Source of the DNA: Mobula hypostoma
Lineage: Eukaryota
Length of the DNA stretch: 64,000 nt
Direction: 5' to 3'
Assembly (NCBI RefSeq): GCF_963921235.1
Contig: NC_086108.1
Span: 41,728,001-41,792,000, forward strand
Position numbers and translations under genes: made by a program. Of this stretch, positions 1,731 through 34,840 are shown one piece after another; the first letter of the stretch is position 1, and each line of letters starts with the position of its first letter. The notes under the pieces were generated by a model. That model had not been told where the DNA came from. It ran no database searches and saw only the letters and a list, made by a program, of their open reading frames with translations.

Positions 1731-4700
1731 CAGGTGGTCCTAGAAAGTTAGTGAACCCTGTAGAATTTTATCTATTTCTGTATAAATATGACCTAAAATG
1801 TAACTAGATCTTCATGTAAGTCCTAAAACTAGATAAAGAGAACCCAATTAAATAAATAACACATAAAAGTTTTACTTGTTCAATTATTTACAGAGGAAAA
1901 ATGATCCAATATTGCATGTATTTGTTGGAAAATATATGTGGACCTTTGCTTTCTGTAACTGGTCTGACTCCCTTGTACAACAATAACTTCAACCAAATGC
2001 TTCCGGTAACTGTTGATCAGTTCTGCACATTGACTTGGAAGCATTTTAGACCGTTCCTCCAAACAAAACTGTTTCAGTTCATCAATATTTCTAGGATATC
2101 TTGCATGAACAGCCCTTTCAGATCATGGCACAGCACCTCAATTGGGTTAAGCTCTGGACTCTGACTTGGCCATTTCAAAACATGAATGTTCTCCTTTTTA
2201 AACCATTCCTTTGTTGATTTCCTCCTGTCTTTCTGATCATTGTCTTGTTGCGTCATCCAACTTCTATTAAGCTTCAGGTGACAGATCACTACCCTAATAT
2301 TCTTCTGTAAAATGTCGATACAATTTTGAATTTATAGTTCCCTCAACAATTGCAAGCTGTCCAGGCCCTGAGGCAGCAAAGCAGCCCCGAACTTTGATGA
2401 TCCTTCCACCATGTTTCACAGTTGTTAGGAGGTTTTGGTGTTGGTGTGCAGCGCCCTTTTTGCTCCAAAAATAGAATCAGGTTTATTATCACTGGCACTT
2501 GTCAAGAAATTAGTTAACTTAGCAGCAGAAGTTCAATGTAATACATAACATAAAAACAAAAAAGTAAAAATAAATAAATAATTCGATTACAATATATGTA
2601 TATTGAATAGATTAAAAATCGTGCACAAACAGAAATAATATATTTAAAAAGTGAAGTAGTGTTCATTCATGGGTTTAAGAATTTGATGGTAGAAGGGAAG
2701 AAGTTGTTCCTGAATCACTGAGTGTGTGCCTTACGGCTTCTGTACCTCCTACCTGATGGTAACAGTGAGGAAAGGACATGCCCTGGGTGGTGGGGGTCCT
2801 TAATAATGGATGCTGCCTTTCTGAAACACCGCTCCTTGGAGATGTCCTGGGTACTTAGTAGGTTAGTACCGAAGATGGAGCTGACTAAATTTACGACCCT
2901 ATGCAGCTTCTTTCGGTCCTGTGCAGTAGCCCCTCCATACCAGACAGTGATGTAGCCTGTCAGAATGCTCTCCACAGTATCCATCTATAGAAGTTTTCGA
3001 GTGTATTTGTTAACCTGCCAAATCTCTTCAAACTCCTAATGAAGTATATTGCTGTCTTGCCTTCTTTATAACTGCATCGATATGTTGGGACCAGGTTAGG
3101 TCTTCAGAGATCTTGACACCCCGGAACTTGAAACTGCTCACTCTCTCCACTTCTGATCCCTCTATGAGGATTGGTATGTGTTCCTTCGTCTTACCCTTCC
3201 TGAAGTCCACAATCAGCTCTTTCATCTTACTGACATTGAGCGCAAAGTTGGTGCTGTGACCCCACTCCACTAGCTGGTATACCTCGCTCCTGTACACCCT
3301 CTCATCTCCATCTGAGATTCTACCAACAATGGTTGTATCATCAGCAATGGTTGTATTATAGATGGTATTTGAGCTATGCCTAGCCACACAGTCATGGGTA
3401 CAGAGAGAGTAGAGCAGTGGACTAAGCACATATCCCTGAGGTGTGCCAGTGTTAATCGTCAGCGAACAGGAGATGTTATCTCCAATCCACACAGATTGTG
3501 GTCTTCTGGTCAGAAAGTCGAGGATCCAATTGCAGAGGGAGGCACAAAGGCCCAGTTTCTGTAACTTATCAATCAGAATTGTGGGAATTACGCTATTAAA
3601 TGCTGAGCTACAGTCAATGAACAACATCCTGACATAGGTGTTTGTGTTGTCCAGGTGGTCTAATGCCATGTGAGAGCTATGGAGACTGCATCTGCCATTG
3701 ACCTATTGTGGCGATAGGCAAATTGCAGTGGGTCCAGGTCCTTGCTGCGGCATGAGTTCAGTTTAGTCATGACCAACCTCTCAAAGCATTTCATCGCTGC
3801 CGATGTGAGTGCTACCAGGCAATAGTCATCAAGGCGGCTCACATTATTCTTCTTAGGCACTGGTATAATTGTTGCCTTTTTGAAGCAAGTGGGAGGTAGC
3901 AGTCGAAGGTTGAAAATGTCCTTAAATACTCCCGCCAGCTGGTTGCAACAGGTTTTCAGAGCCTTACCGGGTACTCCGTCAGGGCCTTCCACCTTGCAAG
4001 GGTTCACCCTCTTTAATGACAACCTAATATCGGCCTCTGAGACTGAGATCAAAGGGTCACCGGATGCAGCAGGGATCTTCACAGTTGCAGTTATATTCTC
4101 CCGTTCAAAGCAGACATAGAGGGCGTTGAGTTCATCTGGTAGTGAAGCAACACTGCCATTCATGCTATTGGGTTTCGCTTTGTAGAAAGTAATGTCTTAT
4201 AAAGCCTGCCAGAGTTGTCGTGCATCTGATGTCACCTCCAACCTCGTTCGAACTTGTCTTCACCCTTGAAATAGCCCTCCACAAATCATACCTGGTTTTC
4301 TGGTACAGACCTAGGTCACCAGACTTGAATGCCACAGACCTTGCCTTCAGCAGACAACATACCTCCTGGTTCATCTACAGGTTTTGGTTTGGGAATATAC
4401 AGCAAGTCTTTGTAGGCACACAGTCATCCACACAGGTTTTAATGAAGTCGGTAATGACTGCAGCATACTCATCCAGGTACAAAGATGAATCCCTGAGTAC
4501 AGTCCAGACCACCAATTCAAAGCAGTCCTGTAGGCGCTCCTGTGCTTCCCTTGTCCATACCTTCTTGGTCCTCACTACTGGTGCTGCAGTCTTCAGTCTC
4601 TGCCTATACTCAGGAAGTAGAAGTACAGCCAGGTGATCAGACTTCCTGAAGTGACAGCATGGAATATCACAGTAGGTATTCTTGATGGTGGTGTTACAAT

Positions 4701-5732: not shown

Positions 5733-6244
5733 TATAATTATGGTCTAAAAATAAAACCCTTTGGATACACTAATGTAGTAATAATATTAACAACCAACTA
5801 AGCCAAGGTACATGTTGACATTGGTCCACCGAATCCATTATCTGCATGAGGAATTCCTCGACAGGCCATCAATGCATTTTCAAATAATACTCTAATGTGA
5901 TGTTTTGATATCAGCAAGTTGTTAGTAGCTTTCTTTTCTTAAAAAGGACAAATTCTCTTTGATGCCAGTTTATTCTCCGAATCAGCTCCACCCAAAACAT
6001 TATGAAGGTGAGAATAGCTGAATTTCAAACTAATTAGCCAAAATACCCAAAAGGGAATATGCAAGAAAGAAAATGCAAAAGTAAGTCAATGCCAACTCAA
6101 TTTACCTTAAGATCCCAAACAAAAGCATACACCAGTGTTGGACCTATCTCTATTACCCACTGAAAGACTCCCAGAAATAACTATTTAATAATTTTAACCA
6201 TTTTGCACTGATATAATTTGTAGTTTCACACGGTACCCCGGTTA

Positions 6245-8492
6245 AACATAGAACGTAGAATAGTACAGCACAGTACAGGCCCTTCGGCCCACAATGTTGT
6301 GCCAACCTTCAAACCCTGCCTCCCATATAAGCCTCCACCTTAAATTCCTCCATATACCTGTCTAGTAGTCTCTTAAACTTCACCAGTGTATCTGCCTCCA
6401 CCACTGACTCAGGCAGTGCATTCCACGCACCAACCACTCTCTGAGTAAAAAACCTTCCTCTAATATCCCCCTTGAACTTACCACCCCTTACCATGTCCTC
6501 TTGTATTGAGCAGTGGTGCCCTGGGGAAGAGGCGCTGGCTATCCGCTCTATCTATTCCTCTTATTATCTTGTATACCTCTATCATGTCTCCTCTCATCCT
6601 CCTTCTCTCCAAAGAGTAAAGCCCTAGCTCCCATAATCTCTGATCATAATGCATACTTTCTAAACCAGGCAGCATCCTGGTAAATCTCCTTTGTACCCTT
6701 TCCAATGCTTCCACATCCTTCCTATAGTGAGGTGACCAGAACTGGACACAGTACTCCAAGTGTGGCCTAACCAGAGTTTTATAGAGCTGCATCATTACAT
6801 TGCGACTCTTAAACTCTATCCCTCGACTTATGAAAGCTAACACCCCATAAGCTTTCTTAACTACCCTATCCACCTGTGAGGCAACTTTCAGGGATCTGTG
6901 GACTTGTACCCCGAGATCCCTCTGCTCCTCCACACTACCAAGTATCCTGCCATTTACTTTGTACTCTGCCTTGGAGTTTGTCCTTCCAAAGTGTACCACC
7001 TCACACTTCTCCAGGTTGAACTCCATCTGCCACTTCTCAGCCCACTCCTGCATCCTATCAATGTCTCTCTGCAATCTCTGACAATCCTCTACACTATCTA
7101 CAGCACCACCAACCTTTGCGTAGTCTGCAAACTTGCCAACCCACCCTTCCACCCCCACATCCAGGTCATTAATAAAAATCGAGAAAAGTACAGGTCCCAG
7201 AACAGATCCTTGTGGGACACCACTAGTCACAATCCTCCAATCTGAATGTACTCCCTCCACCACCACCCTCTGCCTTCTGCAGGCAAGCCAATTCTGAATC
7301 CACCTGGCCAAACTTCCCTGGATCCCATGCCTTCTAACTTTCTGAATAAGCCTACCGTGTGGAACCTTGTCAAATGCCTTACTAAAATCCATACAGATCA
7401 CATCCACTGCACTACCCTCATCTATACGCCTGGTCACCTCCTCCAAAGAACTCTATCAGGCTTGTTAGACACAATCTGCCCTTCACAAAGCCATACTGAC
7501 TGTCCCTGATCAGACCATGATTCTCTAAATGCCTATAGATCCTATCTCTAAGAATCTTTTCTAACAGCTTTCCCACTACAGATGTAAATCTCACTGGTCT
7601 ATAATTACCCGGACTATCCCTACTACCTTTTTTGAACAAGGGGACAACATTCGCCTCCCCCCAATCCTCCGGTACCATTCTGGTGGACAACGAGGACATA
7701 ATAATCCTAGCCAAAGGCTCAGCAATCTCTTCTCTCGCCTGGTGGAGCAGCCTGGGGAATATTCCGTCAGGCCCCGGGGACTTATCTGTCCTAATGTATT
7801 TTAACAACTCCAACACCTCCTCTCCCTTAATATCAACATGCTCCAGAACATTAACCTCACTCATATTGTCCTCACCATCATCTAGTTCCCTCTCATTGGT
7901 GAATACTGAAGAGAAGTATTCATTGAGGACCTCGCTCATTTCCACAGCCTCCAGGCACATCTTCCCACATTTATCTCTAATCGGTCCTACCTTCACTCCT
8001 GTCATCCTTTTTTTCTTCACATAATTGAAGAATGCCTTGGGGTTTTCCTTTACCCTACTCACCAAGGCCTTCTCATGCCCCCTTCTTGCTCTTCTCAGCC
8101 CCTTCTTAAGCTCCTTTCTTGCTTCCCTATATTCCTCAATAGACCCATCTGATCCTTGCTTCCTAAACCTCATATATGCTGCCTTCTTCCACCTGACTAG
8201 ATTTTCCACCTCACTTGTCACCCATGGTTCCTTCACCCTACCATTCTTTATCTTCCTCACTGGGACAAATTTATCCCTAACATCCCGCAAGAGATCCCTA
8301 AACATTGACCACATGTCCATAGTACATTTCCCTGCAAAAACATCATCCCAATTCACACCCGCAAGTTCTAGCCTTATAGCCTCGTAATTTGCCTTTCCCC
8401 AATTAAAAATTTTCCTGTCCTCTCAGATTCTATCCTTTTCCGTGATAATGCTAAAGGCCAGGGAGTGGTGGTCACTGTCCCCCAGATGCTCT
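6245..8492 (-). mobile_element. CR1 LINE, 5'-truncated (ORF2 RT and 3' UTR)
   Basis: ORFs 7418-8356 (KSPGPDGI, GNYRPV) and 6478-7446 (DFSKAFDKVPH, GVPQGSVLGP, RPHLEYCVQFWSP), then FFTQRVVGAWNALP and a short-repeat tail (TTCTATG-like) at about 6245. Confidence 0.93.
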
Positions 8493-10531: not shown

Positions 10532-12612
10532 TAGTCATAGTCATAGTCATACTTTATTAATCCCGGGGGAAATTGGTTTTCATTACAGTTGCTCCATAAA
10601 TAATAAATAGTAATAGAACCATAAATAGTTAATAGTAATATGTAAATTATGCCAGTAAATTATGAAATAAGTCCAGGACCAGCCTATGTCTGACCCTCCA
10701 AGGGAGGAGTTGTAAAGTTTGATGGCCACAGGCAGGAATGACTTCCTATGACGTTCAGTGTTGCATCTCGAAGGAATGACTCTCTGGCTGAATGTACTCC
10801 TGTGCCCACCCAGTACATTATGTAGTGGATGGGAGACATTGACCAAGATGCCATGCAACTTAGACAGCATCCTCTTTTCAGACACCATCGTGAGAGAGTC
10901 CAGTTCCATGCCCACTACATCACTGGCCTTACGAATGAGTTTGTTGATTCTGTTGGTGTCTGCCACCCTCAGCCTGTTGCACCAGCACACAACAGCAAAC
11001 ATGATAGCACTGGCCACCACAGACTCGTAGAACATCCTCAGCATCGTCCGGCAAATGTTAAAGGACCTCAGTCTCCTCAGGAAATAGAGACGGCTCTGAC
11101 CCTTCCTGTAGACAGCCTCAGTGTTCTTTAACCAGTCCAGTTTATTATCAATTCGTATCCCCAGGTATTTGTAATCCTCCACCATGTCCACACTGACCCC
11201 CTGGATGGAAACGGGGGTCACCGGTATCTTAGCTCTCCTCAGGTCTACCACTAGCTCCTTAGTCTTTTTCACATTAAGCTGCAGATAATTCTGCTCACAC
11301 CATGTGACAAAATTTCCTACCATAGCCCTGTACTCAGCCTCATCTCCCTTGCTGATGCATCCAACTAAGGCAGAGTCATCCGAAAACTTCTGAAGATGAC
11401 AAGACTCTGCGCAACAGTTGAAGTCCAAGGTGTAAATGGTGAAGAGAAAGGGAGACAAGACAGTCCCCTGTGGAGCCCCAGTGTTGCTGATCACTCTGTC
11501 GGACACACTATTTTGCAAGCACACGTACTGTGGTCTGCCAGTCAGGTAATCAAGAATCCATGATACCAGGGAAGCATCCACCTGCATCGCTGTCAGCTTC
11601 TCCCCCAGCAGAGCAGGGCGGATGGTGTTGAACGCACTGGAGAAGTCAAAAAACATGACCCTCACAGTGCTCGCTGGCTTGTCCAGGTGGGTGTAGACAT
11701 GGTTCAGCAGGAAGACGATGGCATCCTCAACTCCTAGTCAGGGCTGGTAGGCGAACTGGAGGGGATCTAAGTGTGGCCTGACCATAGGCCGGAGCAGCTC
11801 CAGTACAAGTCTCTCCAGGGTCTTCATGATGTGGGAGGTCATTGCCATCGGTCTGTAGTCATTGAGGCCGCTAGGGTGCGGCGTCTTCGGCACAGGGACG
11901 AGGCAGGACGTCTTCCACAGCACAGGAACCCTCTGGAGCCTCAGGCTCAGGTTGAAGACATGGCGAAGTACTCCACATAGCTGAGGGGCACAGGTTTTGA
12001 GCACCCTGGTACTGATACCATCTGGTCCTGCAGCCTTGCTTGGGTTGAGACGTTTCAGCTGTCTTCTCACCTGTACAGCTGTGAAGCCCACCGTGGTGGT
12101 TTCATGTGGGGAAGGGGTATAGTCATGAGAGCAGGGTGGGGGACTGTGAGGAGGGGTAGGAGGGGAGAGTGGAATATGTGCTGGTTGGGGGCCGACAACA
12201 GATGGCTCATGTGTGGGATGGGCAGGGGCCACAATGTCAAATCTGTTAAAGAACAGGTTAAGTTCATTGGCCCTGTCCACACTGCCTTCAGCTCCTCTGT
12301 TGCTAGTTTGCTGGAACCCAGTGATGGTCCTCATCCCCCTCCAGACCTCTCTCATGTTGTTCTGCTGGAGTTTCCATTCAAGCTTCCTCCTGTACCTGTC
12401 TTTAGCCTCCCTGATCCTGGCTTTCAGGTCACTCTGTATTGCCCTCAGCTCCTCCCTATTTCCATCTCTGAACGCCCTCTTTTTAGCATTCAGGATGTCC
12501 TTAATGTCCTTTGTCACCCATGGCTTGTTATTTGAATAATAAAGGACAGTTTTTGTCAGAACATTGCAGCCCACACAGAAGTTGATGTAATCAGTGAGGC
12601 ACTCTGTGAGCC
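10532..12612 (-). mobile_element. Rex1/Babar-type LINE (family B), 5'-truncated, relatively young
   Basis: ORFs 11738-12637 (KAAGPDGI, DPLQFAYQP) and 10583-11665 (FFDFSSAFNTI, GAPQGTVLSP, KFSDDS). (GACTAT)n tail at 10532-10551. Confidence 0.92.
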
Positions 12613-14400: not shown

Positions 14401-15426
14401 CAAATAAAACTAGCGTTTCATCAAAAGAGCAAGTCTGCCAAGATCTTTAAAGACTAATTTCCTGAAAAATATTATTGTCTTCAATTTTCCCACCTTGATG
14501 CATCATGATTTTACGCTGCGTCTTACATTGGATTAAAAATAAACTCAACAACTAGCTGTATGTGACCACATTTTATGAGGTTCATTCAGTGGTTTTGATT
14601 ATATAGCATAATTAAGGAGCTCATCCTTTTAAGAGTTCAAGCAAAATCGCCTTTTTTATTCAATGCAGTAACATCCAGGATTATGGTTTAGATCCACCAT
14701 CAATCTTACTCAAAGCCTCTACTGTCCTACATTTCAAGAACTACTCGAAATCCAGTAAAGGGTGGGAAGAATTTTCCTCCAACTCATAACTGTGAAAATT
14801 AAAGCCATCCACAATTGGAACTTGAACTTAATCATCTATCAGACAATCAATGGTAACTAGAATTGTCATAAATCAGAATAAATATAGTGTTATATTAAAA
14901 TTAGAAATGGTTGATGATAGAAGTAAATGACAAAGAAGCATAAGTGAACTTGAGCATTTTCATTACAAATATTAAAATCAGCAATTCTTCTAAACGTGTA
15001 TTTGGTGATATATCATGACAGCAATCTCAAACCACTAGAATCAAAATCTTATGATTCGTAAGCATCCGTCATTTACCACAACACCAGCACATTTCACACA
15101 TTCATAATCAGTACTAAAATTAAAAAGTCAGACTTTTATTTGTTGTGGGTCATTCAAATTTAGAGTCAAAACATTTACGCAGGATGAAGCTTAAACTTTG
15201 ACACCTTTCAAAGCAATTCAATGACCAAGAGCTGTTTATCAAATTCACTTTAAGGGAGAAGATAAACTTAGAAGGAGTTGCCATTAAGCACAATTGCAAC
15301 ATGACATATCTTTCAAATTATTATGGGGAATTAGGCTGCATTGTCAAATAATCCAAAATATTTTTGGTAAAATTATTCATCCAAAGCGATTCTATATTAT
15401 CTCATTTGTATCTGGACTGGAATTCA

Positions 15427-15640
15427 CTGAGAATGATGCGATCCTTTGCAAAACTGTACTCTTAATTTTATGATTATACCCTGAAGTGCAATTTCTATAA
15501 ATGCTATGTTCGTGCTACAGTGTGCTGGTCATTGTTCTCTAATGCTGTACTGGACATCCATTACTCTCTCACATGTCACGAAAAGATTCATTGTTCAATT
15601 GAAGTGATGGCTTCCTCACTTAGACAGTTAAATCATGTTG
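15427..15640 (+). repeat. Host-sequence direct repeat, copy 1 (copy 2 at 20087-20299), flanking the LTR element
   Basis: CTGAGAATGATGC...AATCATGTTG occurs on both sides of the element; about 4 differences seen by eye. Confidence 0.95.
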
Positions 15641-15985
15641 CAGCAGGATTGGGAAGGAGGAGAGGCGGGGCCCTGGACACGGGACTGGGGGCTCCGGGCT
15701 GTAGTGGTGGCCTGAGTGAGAGAGGAGTTGGCAAGCAGGCCTGAGGTATCCCTAGTAGTGTCTGAGCCTTTTGGGTTTAGGTGAGGGGGTACAGAGGTCT
15801 CAGAGGGTTAAGAAGCTCCCAGATAGATTGGCCTATTTAGCGCCCGTGGGACGGGAGTAAGGTCCACTGTTTGGAGAGCACTGTCACTGTGTGTATCTGT
15901 GTATGTGTGTGTTGTGTGTCTGTAGGACTGGGTGGCGAGTTATTTAGAAGTCATGAGGACATGACTTTATTTGGTGGGAGGAGAG
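15641..15985 (+). repeat. Extra copy of the element's 3' internal region and PPT, upstream of the 5' LTR
   Basis: Matches 19042-19388 and ends with the polypurine tract GGTGGGAGGAGAG directly before the TG of LTR1. Confidence 0.95.
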
Positions 15986-16682
15986 TGTAAGGGGGTTTCG
16001 ATTTTTATGTTACTGCGGAGGCTAATTAAAATGGCGTCTTTGTTATGTTAATCTGGGTGAGGCGGCTTTGTTGTCTTAAACGCTGAGAAAGTTTGCGCTA
16101 GCAGCTTGTTGTGGTTTAGAGGGTGATAAGAAATATGTTATTAACCAATTGGGATAGTTGTTATGGTTTTGGTGTATTTGAAGATACTGTATGCGCGGGG
16201 TTTTGGGGCAGAAGGCGGGAGAGCGAGACAGAGGATGGATGAGGTGCTGTGAGTCCGCTAACGGGGTCGGACCCCGAGCGGGACGTTCGGCAAGGAGACG
16301 GAGATGGATTCGTGTGGAGCGTCTGGTCGACCACCGTTGTTGGTCCCAGGCGGCCGGTCGAGGTGGTCCGAGGGGGTCGCAGGGTGAAGAAGAAGGTCCT
16401 TGAGCTCCAACGGGTTTTTTGTGCACGAAGAGATTGAACTTTGATAAGTGTGGCGCCTTTTATTTTCCTTTTATGTTTTATTCTCTTTTAATTATATAGT
16501 TCCAGTAATATCTATAAACTGTATATCATTTAATTTCATCTGGTGTATTGTCTGTTATTTGGGCGGGGTGGGGTACCTCACACAGCATCCACACCAACTA
16601 ATTACCCAGTTTGGCAGGGCCGAGGCTGTTTCCCTAGACGACAGCGAGTCGAGTGACCCTGAGGGTGGCCAGGGGGGCTACA
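15986..16682 (+). repeat. 5' LTR
   Basis: TG...CA ends, 697 bp, direct repeat of 19389-20086, CCAAT near 16145. Confidence 0.95.
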
Positions 16683-16685
16683 TTG

Positions 16686-16704
16686 TGGGGGCTTTGTCCA
16701 GGAT
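16686..16704 (+). promoter_or_regulatory. Primer-binding site, tRNA-Pro-like
   Basis: TGGGGGCTTTGTCCAGGAT 3 nt after the LTR, compared with the canonical tRNA-Pro PBS TGGGGGCTCGTCCGGGAT. Confidence 0.8.
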
Positions 16705-16779
16705 GCTTGAGTCTGTTGGTATGCTGTGTGGGTGCCCTGTTTAAATCTGTAATGTGTGTCTCTGTGGGTTATTTGCTGG

Positions 16780-17200
16780 TTATTGCTGTATGCGTGGTGG
16801 GTGAGGTCTTTGTTCAAGTTCAGACTAGCATTGACAAGTTGGAGGTGGCACTAGGGGCTGTCCCTGCGGTTGGGAGAGAGAGGGAAGAGTGGTCTGATTT
16901 GGAGGTAGAGTCTGCGAATAAATGTTCTAGCTCTGGCAGGCTCCGCCTGGCACTTGGGATAAGTGTCCACCCCAGGAGGGGCGGAGGCGTGCGAGACGTG
17001 GGCGGAGCGGATCTCTCAGTTGTTAGATGAGTGGCAGTGCTCAGTTGAGGGAGAGCGACAGGGATTGGTTGAAAGTTTGAGTAGGCAGGCTGGTGACGGT
17101 GTTAGAGCTGTCAGGTTCACTTACACCATAGTGACAGCTGTCAGTTATTTGAAAGAGGGGGGAAAGTTTTCAGTGTGTCTTCTCTGGCGAGGAGGGCGGC
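16780..17200 (+). pseudogene. gag: Decayed Gypsy gag (PNMA-like capsid)
   Basis: [13 protein letters not shown], then (frameshifted) [29 protein letters not shown]. Resembles the RLRxFSG...ETW...LEEWQCSxxEKRxRLxESL motif of PNMA-type gag. Confidence 0.75.
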
Positions 17201-17363
17201 TAAATTGCTTGTAGTGCCAGGGGGATCATTTCAGGGGATCAGTTGTTCAGCTGATCAGAGAGGGATCGAGAAACTTAGTAGAGGCCCATTGGGGGAAAGG
17301 CTTGGGGTCTCTGGGGAAGCACGTTCCCAGCAATGTACCACTGCACTTCCGCAAGGAAAAGAC

Positions 17364-17600
17364 CCTATTCCTGAAGGCTTAGAGGGACTACGCCCCAGGG
17401 TGTCAATATGAATAGAGGGAAGCGATGCTAAAGCTATCCTCGACCCCGGGGCGCAGATCAAGTTGTTGGACAGTTCATTTTACAACCGGTGTCTGAAGCA
17501 TTTATCCTTGACAACCGCAAGGGCACCGGAGACTTTGGGTACTAGTGGCAGTAGTTATCCAGAAGCCGATGATTGGTTAATGACCCTGGAGTTCATGGGG
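17364..17600 (+). pseudogene. Decayed retropepsin protease
   Basis: PIPEGLEG...IEGSDAKAILDPGAQIKLLDSSFYNRCLKHL. The active-site D(T/S)G reads DPG; in-frame stop at 17409-17411. Confidence 0.75.
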
Positions 17601-17844
17601 GCATTGTCTGGGCACCCAGCGTGTCGAGTTGCTTCGGAGGACGTGTGTAGCAGCCTTGAGCCGGTACCGAATTTAAACGAGACCCAGCGGTGGTACGGCC
17701 TGGGGAAAGTAGCTGAGGGTGAGACCCTCTTAGTAGACGCTCCGAACTACCACGAGGGAGGGGAGTTGACCGCTGAAGACACCTCAGTGAGAGAGAGGTC
17801 GCGGCAAATGTACCCTAGTGGCGTGGGAGATGAAGGCAGCGTGT

Positions 17845-18080
17845 GTGGGGATTACGCGACGTGGTTTAATGTGCTGCATCTGAGGGGTGGATGTTGCCAG
17901 ATCCTGAGGAGTGCGGCTGTTGAGCTGAAGATGGCCTTTACTAGTTCCCCAGGATTCTTCCGATCCAAAACGATACCCAAGGGCATATCCGGAGCCCCTG
18001 CATCCTTCCCGCGGGGCATGAGGAAGACCATGGGGGAAGTGAAGGTGTGTGGAGTTTTGATGTATGTGGATGACCGCCTA
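17845..18080 (+). pseudogene. Decayed, internally deleted Gypsy reverse transcriptase
   Basis: WFNVLHLRGGCCQI (cf. WFSxLDLxSGYxQI), KMAFTSSPGFF...PKGISGAPASF, LMYVDD. Confidence 0.8.
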
Positions 18081-18084
18081 GAGC

Positions 18085-19167
18085 TTGGATTCGCCTGGGG
18101 GGACTATGAGGCGAGGCGAGTGGGCTGAGCCCGGGCGACCGAAGCGAAGTGTCAAATGTGGAGGAGTTTTTGGCCGGAGGAGTTTGGTGCAATGTGAGGA
18201 AAATGACCCAACATACCAGTTGAACTTCCTGGTGTTGGGACAGACGGTGGTGGACCGGGGGATGGAAACCCAGGTCGTCAATCTGAATGAGACACAGGGA
18301 AGAGAGGGGATTTGCACAGCACTGCGGTCATATACTGACGAATTAATCCAGCGAGAAGAAACAATGACCCGCCTTCGAAGGGATCAGCAGAAACTCAAGA
18401 CGTCGATTCAGAACAGATTGGAAGACTTGCAAGTTGGAGAAGATCATGGAAGTGTTCTGACTAAGGTCAACAGAAAACCAAGAGCACAGGGAGGGGAGTT
18501 TGACTACACTCCCGAGGAGGTAAAGAAATGGAGGACAGATCTCGGAAAGGGGAGGCGGACGCTTGAAAGGAACCTGAAGATGACTATCGCGAGTTTAAAT
18601 GAAGTGGAAAAACTGAACGTTGACCTGGAAGACGTCCTCAGGAAGAAACAACCGGAGGCTGAACATTCTTTAACTGCTGCTTTTCAGGTCAGGGTGGAAG
18701 AAGCTGGTGGGGTAACTGCGTCCCAGATTGAGATGGCCAGGAACCCTGAGTCAGAACTGCGGAGGCTGTGGCGAGAGTTGAAGGAGTCCCCGAAGAAGCT
18801 GACGTCTCGACTGCAGGAGGCTGAAGGGGTAGCCCCGGCTAAATGTTTCAGTTTGGAGAAACTCAAACAGCAGCTACCGATCGATGGAATGAGGAAGGAT
18901 ACGGATTCGAAGGATGATGTGCTGCACATGTGGAACATGCTGCCTTTCGCTAACTTCCCCGTGACTGAGGAAGAGACCTTTGGCCCTTCTCCCACTGAGT
19001 CAGGTGTAGTGGGGAGGGTTAGCTGTGGGCAGTCTGAGTTGCGGCAGGATTGGGAAGGAGGAGAGGCGGGGCCCCGGACACTGGACTGGGGGGGTCCGAG
19101 CTGTAGTGGTGGCCTGAGTGAGAGAGGAGTTGGCAAGCAGGCCCGAGGTATCCCTAGTAGTGTCTGA
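18085..19167 (+). CDS. Chimeric 360-codon ORF: sarcomeric myosin heavy-chain rod fragments (MYH16-like, ~18181-18885) fused to a probable element-derived tail
   Basis: [58 protein letters not shown] and [11 protein letters not shown]...[13 protein letters not shown] match conserved myosin II S2/LMM motifs. First ATG at 18106. Expression unknown. Confidence 0.7.
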
Positions 19168-19374
19168 GCCTTTTGGGTTTAGGTGAGGGGGTACAGAGGT
19201 CTCAGAGGGTTAAGAAGCTCCCAGATAGATTGGCCTATTTAGCGCCCGTGGGACGGGAGTAAGGTCCACTGTTTGGGGAGCACTGTCACTGTGTGTATCT
19301 GTGTATGTGTGTGTTGTTGTGACTGTAGGACTGGGTGGCGAGTTATTTAGAAGTCATGAGGACATGACTTTATT

Positions 19375-19388
19375 TGGTGGGGGGAGAG
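19375..19388 (+). promoter_or_regulatory. Polypurine tract
   Basis: TGGTGGGGGGAGAG immediately before the TG of the 3' LTR. Confidence 0.85.
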
Positions 19389-20086
19389 TGTAAGGGGGTT
19401 TCGATTTTTATGTTACTGCGGAGGCTAATTAAAATGGCATCTTTGTTATGTTAATCTGGAGAATGCTGCTTTGTTGTCTTAAACGCTGAGAAAGTTTGCG
19501 CTAGCAGCTTGTTGTGGTTTAGAGGGTGATAAGAAATACGTTATTAACCAATTGGGATAGTTGTTATGGTTTTGGTGTATTTGAAGATACTGTATGCGCG
19601 GGGTTTTGGAGCAGAAGGCGGGAGAGCGAGACAGAGGATGGACGAGGTGCTGTGAGTCCGCTAACGGGGTCGGACCCCGAGCGGGACATTCGGCAAGGAG
19701 ACGGAGATGGATTCGTGTCGGAGCGTCTGGTCGACCACCGTTGTTGGTCCCAGGCGGCCGGTCGAGGTGGTCCGAGGGGGTCACGGGGTGAAGAAGAAGG
19801 TCCTTGAGCTCAAATGGGTTTTTTGTGCACGAAGAGATTGAACTTTGATAAGTGTGGCGCCTTTTATTTTCCTTTTATATTTTATTCTCTTTTAATTATA
19901 TAGTTCCAGTAATATCTATAAACTGTATATCATTTAATTGCATCTGGTGTATTGTCTGTTATTTGGGCGGGATGGGGTACCTCACACAGCATCCACACCA
20001 ACTAATTACCCAGTTTGGCGGGGCCGAGGCTGTTTCCCTAGACGACAGCGAGCCGAGCGACCCTGAGGGTGGCCAGGGGGGCTACA
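19389..20086 (+). repeat. 3' LTR
   Basis: TGTAAG...GCTACA, 698 bp; about 96-97% identical to the 5' LTR by eye. Confidence 0.95.
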
Positions 20087-20299
20087 CTGAGAATGATGCT
20101 ATCTTTGCAAAACTGTACTCTTAATTTGATGATTATACCCAGAAGTGCAATTTCTATAAATGCTATGTTCGTGCTACAGTGTGCTGGTCATTGTTCTCTA
20201 ATGCTGTACTGGACATCCATTACTCTCTCACATGTCACGAAAAGATTCATTGTTCAATTGAAGTGATGGCTTCCTCACTTAGACAGTTAAATCATGTTG
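20087..20299 (+). repeat. Host-sequence direct repeat, copy 2
   Basis: Matches 15427-15640 and begins exactly at the 3' LTR end. Confidence 0.95.
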
Positions 20300-32746: not shown

Positions 32747-34840
32747 GTGGACTGTATTCAGGGATTAATCTTTGAATCTGGATGAGTATGCTGCAGTTGT
32801 TATCGACTTCATTAAAAGCTTTGTGGACGAGTGTGTGCCTACAAAGACTTACTGTACATTCCCAAACCAAAAGCCATGGATGAACCAGGAGGTACGTCGT
32901 CTGCTGAAGGCTGGATCTGTGGCATTCAAGTCTGGCAACTCAGGCCTGTACCAGAAAACCAGGTATGATTTGCGGAGGGCTATTTCAAGGGTGAAGAGAC
33001 AATTTTGAATGAGGTTGGAGGTGATATCAGATGCACAGTAACTCTGGTTGGGTCTGCAAGACATTACTTCCTACAAAGTGAAACCCAATAGCATGAATGG
33101 CAGCGATGCTTCATTACCAGATGAACTCAACGATTCCTATGCATGCTTTGAAAAGGAGAACACAACTACAGCTGTGAAGATCCCTGCTGCACCTGATGAC
33201 CCTGTGATCTTTGTCTCAGAGGCCGCCGTTAAGACTGTCTTTAAAGAGAGTGAACCTTCGCAAGGCGGAAGGTCCCGATGGAGTACCTGGTGAGGCTCTA
33301 AAAACCTGTGCCAACCAACTAGCGAGAGTATTCAAGGACATTTTCAACCTCTCACTGCTACGGGCAGAAATTCCCACTTGCTTCAAAAAGGCAACAATTA
33401 TACCAGTACCTAAGAAGAATAATGTGGGCTGCCTTAAAGACTATTGCCCGGTAGCGCTCACATCGACAGTGATGAAATGCTTTGAGAGTTTGGCTATGAC
33501 TAGACTGAACTCCTGCCTCAGCAGGGACCTGGACCCATTGCAATTTGCCTATCGCCACAACAGGTCAACAGCAGACACAATCTCAAAGTCTCTCCACACG
33601 GCTTTAGACCACCTAGACAACACAATCACCTATGTCAGGATGCTGTTCATCAACTATAGCTCAGCATTTAATACCATCATTCCCATAATCCTGAATGAGA
33701 AGTTGCAGAACCTGGGCCTCTGTACCTCCCTCTGCAATTGGATCTTCAACTTTCTAACCGGAAGACCACAGTCTGAGCGGATTAGTGATAACATATCCTC
33801 CTTGCTGATGATCAACACTGGCGCACCTCAGGGATGTGTGCTTAGCCCACTGCGCTACTCTCTGTATACACATGACTGTGTGGCTAGGCATAGCTCAATT
33901 ACCATCTATAAATTTGCTGATGATACAACCATTGTTGGTAGAATCTCAGGCGGTGACGAGAGGGTGTACAGGAGTGAGATATGCCAACTAGTGGAATGGT
34001 GCCGCAGCAACAAGCTGGCACTCAACGTCAGTAAGACGAAAGAGCTGATTGTGGACTTCAGGAAGGGTAAGACGAAGGAACACATACCAATCCTCATAGA
34101 GGGATCAGAAGTGGAGAGAGTGAGCAGCTTCAAGTTCCTGGGTGTCGAGTTCTCTGAAGATCTAACCTGGTCCCAACATATTAATGTAGTTATAAAGAAG
34201 GCAAGACAGTGACTATACTTTATTAGGTGTTTGAAGAGATTTGGCATGTCAACAAGTACACTCAAAAACTTCTATAGTTGTACTGTGGAGAGCATTCTGA
34301 CAGGCTGCATCACTGTCTGGTATGGAGGGGCTACTGCACAGGACCGAAAGAAGCTGCAGAAGGTTGTAAATCTAGTCAGCTCCATCTTGGGCACTAGCCT
34401 ACAAAGTACCCAGGACATCTTTAGGGAGCGGTGTCTCAGAAAGGCAGTGTCCATTATTAAGGACCTCCAGCACCCAGGGCATGCCCTTTTCTCACTGTTA
34501 CCATCAGGCAGGAGATACAGAAGCCTGAAGGTACACATTTAGCAAGTCAGAAACAGCTTCTTTCCCTCTGCCATCCGATTCCTAAATGGACATTGAAGCT
34601 TTGGACACTACCTCACTTTTTTTTAATATGCAGCATTTCTGTTTTTGTACATTTTTAAAAATCTATTCACTATGTGTAACTGACTTACTTGTTTATTTAT
34701 CATGTTTATTTAATTTATTATCATTATTATTATTATTATTTTCTCTCTCTCTGCTAAATTATGTATTGCATTGAACTGCTGCTGCAAAGTTAACAAATTT
34801 CACATCACATGCCGGTGACAATAAACCTGATTCTGATTCT
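32747..34840 (+). mobile_element. Rex1/Babar-type LINE (family A), 5'-truncated
   Basis: ORF 33211-34212 ([29 protein letters not shown]) and 34231-34542. Ends AATAAACCTGATTCTGATTCT. Confidence 0.93.

Follow-up and report, generated by a model that had tools for sequence, protein, structure and literature searches.

The stretch of the Mobula hypostoma genome analysed here (64,000 nt, hereafter the window, to which all coordinates refer unless a contig is given) contains at 15986-20086 a long terminal repeat (LTR) retrotransposon whose open reading frame (ORF) includes a piece of muscle myosin. It is probable that this represents a decayed member of a non-autonomous Ty3/gypsy LTR family that occurs in high copy number in myliobatiform rays; this degree of confidence applies jointly to the whole of the explanation presented below (family, capture, mechanism and abnormal insertion). 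The canonical element is about 4.1 kb long with LTRs of 0.7 kb, and all of its parts lie on the + strand. The 5' LTR (15986-16682, TGTAAGG...GGCTACA) is 97-98% identical to the 3' LTR (19389-20086), which was delimited by repeat comparison and from other copies. It is followed by the putative primer-binding site region TTGTGGGGGCTTTGTCC (16683-16700), assigned by position alone and conserved in eight other copies, and by a gag-like part of the family ORF (16692-17411), which has in-frame stops in this copy and a weak Pfam match to PNMA (E 6.4e-4, 19.6 bits, below the cut-off of 25). A much deleted protease/reverse transcriptase (RT) remnant comes next (17412-18128), with a frameshift near its end; it contains the motifs ILDPGAQ, LHLRGGCCQI and, at 18063-18074, YVDD, and the window copy reaches only E 0.034 for RVT_1, below the cut-off. 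The remnant of the N-terminus of RNase H (18180-18254) is 77% identical in DNA to positions 2818-2892 of the reverse complement of L070, an older copy in which the homologous ORF matches Pfam RT_RNaseH (E 2.7e-11). Directly downstream of this RT/RNase H sequence lies the myosin-rod cargo (18255-18880), and then a conserved C-terminal tail of the ORF, recognised by comparison among copies (18881-19167); in the window copy the tail runs on to 19167 after a frameshift, while 13 of 29 other copies have a stop at the equivalent of about 19115. The polypurine tract GGTGGGGGGAGAG (19376-19388) is directly 5' of the 3' LTR. With in-frame stops in its gag-like part and two frameshifts, the window copy is dead, and the stop-free coiled-coil ORF within it is the surviving part of the family ORF, from which its open frame is inherited.

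That ORF, which an earlier note on this DNA had singled out, is indeed present in the ORF list of the window (18082-19167, 361 residues). Compared with all Protein Data Bank (PDB) chains using phmmer, it matches myosin-4 best (6ysy, E 5.2e-7), followed by myosin-7 chains (E 1.2e-6 to 1.8e-5) and the striated myosins of insect and spider (E 6.6e-5 to 6.3e-4); below E 1e-3 the matches are exclusively sarcomeric myosins. A chimera with a myosin-7 fragment is a further match (E 0.0029), and all remaining chains have an E of 0.9 or more. The phmmer matches form three collinear blocks in the myosin order that the earlier note had proposed, with block 1 (ORF residues 80-194) corresponding to myosin 977-1091, block 2 to about 1150-1185 and block 3 to about 1393-1425. 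A rod profile made from 11 sarcomeric myosins recovers the same three blocks (69.7, 28.9 and 16.7 bits), placed by local domain placement; a global profile alignment misplaced blocks 2 and 3. On the DNA, the cargo consists of a rod-start piece (18262-18318), block 1 (18319-18663), the segment EHSLTAAFQ (18664-18690), block 2 (18691-18789) and block 3 (18790-18876). The rod is interrupted by in-frame deletions whose joints are near 18318, 18657, 18690, 18790 and 18832; the second, third and fourth had been pointed out before and coincide with block boundaries of the rod profile, while the first and the last are additional. Four of the five myosin matches listed in the earlier note were recovered with the PDB chains and the rod profile, but the first (SLVQCEEND...QL, 18181-18250) belongs to the RNase H remnant, and the cargo begins at about 18255 rather than at 18181. 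A word-indexed protein search of the window cargo against longer proteins gave nothing at E ≤ 0.001. About 200-205 residues in three blocks are retained out of roughly 1080 rod residues, and the motor domain is absent. The PDB matches, the rod profile, and the host exon identity and tree described below thus characterise the cargo as part of a sarcomeric myosin rod, without introns and with internal deletions; lacking both the motor domain and a full-length rod, it is myosin-derived without being a myosin.

The chimera now numbers hundreds of copies or more and occurs in several genera of rays, in agreement with the spread as a family that had been suggested for it. A first look at the species' own 3.48-Gb genome with the cargo (18181-18885) gave 861 candidates; 40 of them were scored, and every one shows 96-100% identity along its full length, the hits being distributed over many contigs. 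In addition, 29 other fetched loci (30 with the window), again on many contigs, align from 16681 through the end of the 3' LTR with 93-96% identity. A degenerate DNA pattern for LEEAGGAT had only five matches, the pattern being too strict. Target duplications are 4 bp in both of the canonical copies checked (CATG in one, CCTT/CCTC in the other). The order of the family ORF is gag-like part, protease-like motif, RT motifs up to YVDD, RNase H remnant, myosin and conserved tail; six other copies have open frames of 751, 637, 591, 571, 564 and 550 residues starting just after the 5' LTR, copy L024 has an open frame from a point corresponding to 16692 onwards, and the frame at 18298-18868 is open in 21 of 30 loci. 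No integrase was found in any family copy examined, and none precedes the RT. Cargo-related ORFs are annotated in Mobula, Hypanus and Hemitrygon.

What the cargo has replaced is indicated by older copies. A teleost myosin-16-like rod query had 2516 first-look candidates in the genome, among which are intronless matches as long as 199 residues with an identity of 48-50%. Two of these, copies L070 and L071, were retrieved, and their DNA shows 72-82% identity to that of the window element across the gag-like part, protease, RT, cargo and tail. RVT_1 is above the cut-off in L071 (E 5e-12), the RNase H domain is whole in the older copies (RT followed by RT_RNaseH in L070), and in both copies myosin comes directly after RNase H and starts further upstream in the rod, with profile scores of up to 193.8 bits on L071. 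Since RNase H is whole in these copies, the myosin would have replaced the integrase; of the earlier proposal that it stands in place of RNase H and integrase, the second half is retained and the first is not, RNase H being whole in the older copies and present as a remnant in the window. The internal deletion of L070 and L071 differs from that of the window in that block 2 is absent, and other in-frame rod deletions occur in L075 and in annotated Mobula and Hypanus ORFs, so that at least seven deletion forms, all of which keep the frame, are known (although annotated proteins are biased towards open frames). The differing deletions of the subfamilies point to a common ancestor with a longer rod piece, corresponding roughly to P0161 residues 893-1430, in the place of the integrase, and all element lineages share one origin.

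The fast-type sarcomeric genes of the host comprise eight at 15.3-15.9 Mb of contig C68 and single genes on C2 and C40; the canonical MYH16 gene is on C36. In the fast-type genes and in C36 MYH16 the cargo blocks belong to separate exons, whereas the cargo runs without introns across the C36 MYH16 junctions at P0161 residues 1025, 1073 and 1152. It also continues past both the acceptor and the donor of a further host exon, C68:14612358-14612504, which has a pyrimidine tract with an AG acceptor and a GTGAGT donor. Host junctions therefore fall inside a continuous cargo when they are mapped onto it, in line with the proposed capture from a spliced host mRNA. When this exon (L074:1492-1638) was compared with the element copies, the DNA identity was 97.3% for L075, 96.6% for L070, 91.8% for L071 and 80% for the window (18501-18645). 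A second exon, C68:14666482-14666736, reads IEMNKKRESELLRLRRELEEA where the cargo reads IEMA(K/R)..ESELLRLWRELEES. Identity of the window cargo is 51.0% with host MYH16 and 35.4% and 36.0% with host fast-type genes. For the less deleted cargo P0008, the closest named full-length proteins are teleost 'myosin-16-like' ones with 64 and 59 bits, against at most 45 for fast skeletal myosins (E ≤ 10). The cargo is homologous to about residues 906-1415 of a teleost myosin-16-like protein and shares with MYH16 the residues LKMTI, NLNE.E, DLEE(V/I) and ELL.L.RELEE; unlike canonical MYH16, it has no motor domain, its rod is joined across deletions and its source is not the C36 orthologue. In a first tree the cargo adjoined the MYH16 clade from outside, C36 MYH16 and two teleost myosin-16-like proteins forming a clade that excludes it (99/97 and 99/99). 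This position is explained by the addition of the two C68 exons: in a maximum-likelihood tree of 23 rows and 274 columns, the C68 gene groups with all 11 element rows (support 100/100), this group is sister to canonical MYH16 (100/99), and the C68 host row sits on a branch of zero length, basal to the element rows. Sequence and tree together thus indicate as the source an intron-bearing, MYH16-related paralogue on C68 at 14.61-14.67 Mb. The earlier label 'MYH16-like' is correct as regards kinship and incorrect as regards orthology, the cargo and the C68 gene being sister to the MYH16 clade.

A side observation concerns the divergence of the cargo. The older-type cargo is 92-97% identical in DNA to the host exon and that of the young subfamily 80%, and yet stingray genera have the young joint between blocks 1 and 2 as well; either evolution in the old lineage was slow, or the cargo has been renewed from host mRNA. 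Separately, intronless-looking myosin-tail stretches with stops (profile positions 514-993) occur at C18:48745314-48746731, C50:30689110-30689772, C184:304888-305403, C157:172388-172903, C21:138691427-138692201, C12:196941089-196941472 and C12:197103644-197104027, and could represent processed pseudogenes or further myosin pieces carried by elements.

As for the mechanism, a single acquisition is envisaged, in which the RT would have switched from the element RNA to a co-packaged, spliced myosin mRNA; a transduction of this kind is of the retroviral-oncogene type. The joint between blocks 2 and 3 falls in a repeated ELEE(S/T) motif, which is the single hint regarding microhomology at the joints. 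Because the family is without integrase and its RT is gutted, it would depend on autonomous gypsy relatives, of which the genome has plenty and whose proteins would copy and insert it. An RNase H query had 188,431 first-look candidates, of which 150 were scored and are, apart from the query's own locus, about 61-73% identical; open frames among them reach 1714 residues.

LTR retroelements that capture host coding sequence are textbook knowledge in oncogenic retroviruses and are known from plants. Acutely transforming retroviruses transduce host mRNA as Gag-onc fusions, and they resemble the ray family in having an intronless host coding piece between LTRs, an in-frame fusion, replaced replication genes and a need for a helper; the ray family differs from them in being an endogenous Ty3/gypsy element, in carrying a structural coiled coil rather than a growth regulator, and in having at least hundreds of germline copies across ray genera. 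Plant LTR retrotransposons capture gene fragments (maize Bs1 and similar elements). Bs1 is likewise a non-autonomous LTR element in which spliced host fragments replace pol and which has formed a family, but the ray element has a vertebrate host and a single cargo, whose frame has remained joined to those of the gag and pol remnants despite many independent deletions and which bears signs of purifying selection. LINE-1 ORF1p has a trimer coiled coil. An N-terminal coiled coil is also described for the GAG of Cer1 (PMC10309623). Both are long alpha-helical self-association modules of particle proteins, which is the role proposed for the cargo; they are the elements' own sequences, whereas here the coil is taken from a host myosin and its role is putative. 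According to PMC5408684, bdelloid rotifer LTR elements have acquired separate ORF3 genes (env-like, GDSL esterase and DEDDy exonuclease) in autonomous elements; they are similarly modular, with foreign coding sequence spreading together with the element, but differ from the ray family, in which a host structural fragment is fused into a non-autonomous polyprotein. In full-text literature searches, neither this family nor any retrotransposon with a myosin cargo came up. Taken together, the data amount to a real and well-supported capture of a host gene by a vertebrate LTR retrotransposon family. What is unusual is that a germline family of a vertebrate has kept a single host structural domain in frame while it was repeatedly deleted and amplified. 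It provides a natural example of retroelements gaining protein modules, and one that offers hundreds of copies on which to measure selection on the captured domain.

The question of whether the captured domain has been under selection was addressed by comparing copies, as envisaged in the earlier note, and the tests lean towards purifying selection. The ratio of non-synonymous to synonymous substitution (dN/dS, Nei-Gojobori counts, one young copy against two old copies) is 0.37 (p 3e-4), 0.45 (p 0.0045) and 0.45 (p 0.04) for the cargo in its true frame, compared with 0.82-1.22 for the enzyme remnants, 0.29-0.82 for the gag-like part and 0.37-1.31 for the tail. Among 25 young copies (five rearranged ones were omitted), the cargo variants present in at least three copies comprise 13 synonymous and 14 non-synonymous changes and the singletons 25 and 75 (Fisher p 0.03), while the same test gives 3/24 and 7/20 in the shifted frames. 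The 3.5-residue hydrophobic periodicity of the cargo has a power of 0.55 (z 5.2, reached by none of 1000 shuffles), similar to a real rod (0.51), and z is -0.4 for the tail and 1.3 for the protease/RT remnant. The heptad phase is kept at the joint between blocks 1 and 2 of P0008 (net 42 residues). These results give moderate support to purifying selection on a helical coiled-coil peptide. Whether the rod piece was kept by selection as an alpha-helical coiled coil that would let the Gag-fusion protein self-associate is in our estimation close to an even call. A more far-reaching conjecture, which we put forward tentatively and consider somewhat less likely to be right than wrong, is that the myosin coiled coil became a working self-association module of the element's Gag-fusion particle protein, with a role comparable to that of the LINE-1 ORF1p coiled coil, and that across rays it gave the helper-dependent element, over tens of millions of years, an edge over its helpers; the cargo may also have been renewed occasionally by homologous template switching with host mRNA. 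Such renewal would explain why older-type copies differ by about 3% from the host exon and the young subfamily by 20%.

The alternative that survives best is that the myosin piece is a neutral passenger, the frame being open through a recent open master or through protection from nonsense-mediated decay, with its sequence irrelevant. It fits with the enzyme remnants, which are in frame at a dN/dS of about 0.8-1.2 and show that frame-keeping without sequence constraint occurs in this ORF, with the scatter of the shifted-frame cargo controls (0.35 to 1.11), with a polymorphism test that reaches only p 0.03, and with the count of 21 open cargo frames in 30 loci, which is by our estimate about what neutral decay of an open master would leave. 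It accounts less well for the fact that the cargo lies at 0.37-0.45, below the enzyme remnants, in all three true-frame comparisons, for the synonymous excess among shared variants in the true frame only, for a heptad periodicity of real rod strength despite about 49% amino acid divergence from host MYH16, and for the preservation of the frame in all of the deletion forms, with the bias of annotated proteins kept in mind. We therefore regard it as unlikely, though it is a serious competitor.

Several observations weigh against the reading favoured here, that of a captured myosin rod kept by selection in a mobile family. The copy numbers rest on genome-wide candidate numbers, which are first-look counts, and template switching, mobilisation in trans and the coiled-coil role are steps that we infer. 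A Pfam match to Myosin_tail_1, by which the earlier note had expected the cargo to be recognised, was found neither in the window ORF (E ≤ 1) nor in the cargo ORFs of older copies (E ≤ 0.01), although the search of PDB chains does match myosin. As to the source, BLASTP totals against eight myosins (MYH16-like, fast and MYH7-like) are mixed, with fast myosins higher for P0002, and were not used to name the paralogue; block 3 has AKC(F/S)SLEK like non-MYH16 myosins, where MYH16 has ARAASLEK, which leaves the source assignment of this block putative; and the two C68 exons are 54 kb apart, so that their membership in one gene is also putative. As to selection, one shifted-frame control reaches a dN/dS of 0.35 (p 0.009), which indicates that the tests are noisy, the three comparisons share branches, the counting method ignores transition bias, and constraint is not consistently seen in the gag-like part, the tail or the enzyme remnants. 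The joint between blocks 2 and 3 (net 208 residues) is out of heptad phase, and no clean rule emerges. Lastly, the AlphaFold monomer is mostly helical with a break at residues 65-87 and has a mean predicted local distance difference test score of 49.8, a confidence too low for it to be used.

A transfer in the opposite direction, in which the C68 exons would be element pieces in a host gene and the coiled coil would have arisen in the element, is very improbable. The zero-length host branch at the base of the element clade gives no direction by itself, and a Hypanus SDHAF3 gene model does have element cargo as exons. However, the ends of the C68 exons are those of canonical MYH16 exons (about residues 1025-1073 and 1152-1234), 62 rod residues that are absent from the element follow in the second exon, and a myosin-6-like protein of the electric ray Narcine bancroftii (P0018, isoform X4) contains the exon sequence almost unchanged, with more of the rod after it. 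The source gene thus seems to be conserved as far as electric rays, and the C68/element clade nests within the sarcomeric myosins. The exon boundaries shared with MYH16 and the electric-ray protein argue for the direction from host to element, by way of a spliced message, and the element-to-host direction was rejected on these four grounds. A local accident, with a processed myosin pseudogene made by a long interspersed nuclear element (LINE) beside or inside an LTR element here only, is less probable still: other intronless myosin-tail matches do exist in the genome (e.g. that on C18 mentioned above), but the arrangement of RT, RNase H, myosin, tail and LTR recurs at the 29 other loci, canonical copies have 4-bp target duplications, and in the window the LTR-flanked, repeated unit has no A-run 3' of the cargo, so that the 861 candidates and the 29 loci rule this explanation out. 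Equally remote is a generic coiled coil with a chance likeness to myosin, for which the cargo's weak Pfam matches to coiled-coil families only (e.g. CENPH, CdvA and Spc29) could be cited, but which is ruled out by PDB matches that below E 1e-3 are confined to sarcomeric myosins, by the 97% DNA identity between older copies and an exon of a host myosin gene, and by the 100/100 support in the tree.

Returning to the element in the window, its insertion is abnormal. The two LTRs had been mis-delimited in the earlier note, the window containing a longer repeat (15637-16682 and 19037-20086). None of six snippets at 5' LTR starts predicted from this repeat matched, which led to the shorter canonical LTR, and in both of the other copies for which more sequence was read, the 5' LTR begins at a position equivalent to 15986/19389, with TGTAAGG directly after a polypurine tract. 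The difference is an extra copy of the 3' internal segment upstream of the 5' LTR (15637-15985, + strand, equal to 19037-19388), which makes both window LTRs about 350 bp too long; this would be the result of plus-strand synthesis that started upstream of the normal polypurine tract. On the outside, otherwise unique host DNA is duplicated, the left copy (15428-15640, 213 nt) being 98% identical to the right one (20088-20299, 212 nt), which was found by repeat comparison; the two genome candidates for the flank 15300-15635 are the two places in the window. The 15637-15985 segment and the host flank have the four bases GTTG in common, and microhomologies of 3-4 bp (CAC and GTTG) are found at the duplication. 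The target duplication of the window copy is thus 213 bp, unlike the 4 bp of canonical copies. The two copies of the duplication have diverged by about 2%, just as the two LTRs have, so that both date back to one event, and the 213-bp duplication is apparently a giant target-site duplication of this one insertion. Duplication and microhomologies would be accounted for by a repair-mediated rather than integrase-mediated insertion, which would apparently make it integrase-independent. The window copy would record a rare type of insertion that combines extended LTRs with a 213-bp target duplication.

The cargo also has consequences for annotation, since its ORFs carry public myosin or MYH16 names in ray genomes, and such names should be read with caution. 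Short cargo-matching ORFs (P0005, P0008, P0012, P0014, P0015 and P0016) are publicly named as myosins, the names being 'myosin heavy chain, striated/cardiac/skeletal muscle-like' and 'putative uncharacterized protein MYH16'. Among the five of these that were read as sequence, P0005, P0012, P0014 and P0015 contain RT/RNase H remnants or the element tail, while P0008 has only the cargo blocks with the shared deletion joints. The Hypanus sabinus SDHAF3 isoform X1 model (P0011) has 57 host-like N-terminal residues followed by element cargo and tail, and is either an exonised element copy or an annotation artefact.

Elsewhere in the window, four other RT ORFs are found at 3028-3702 (-), 6478-8422 (-), 10583-11737 (-) and 33208-34212 (+), with RVT_1 matches at E 9e-17 to 2e-26, which marks the window as a transposon-rich stretch; the ORF at 10583-11737 also has ALKBH8_N above the Pfam cut-off beside RVT_1. 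The strands are strongly asymmetric: the GC skew is +0.28 to +0.32 across 16001-20000, corresponding to a G-rich sense strand, and -0.375 across 6001-8000.

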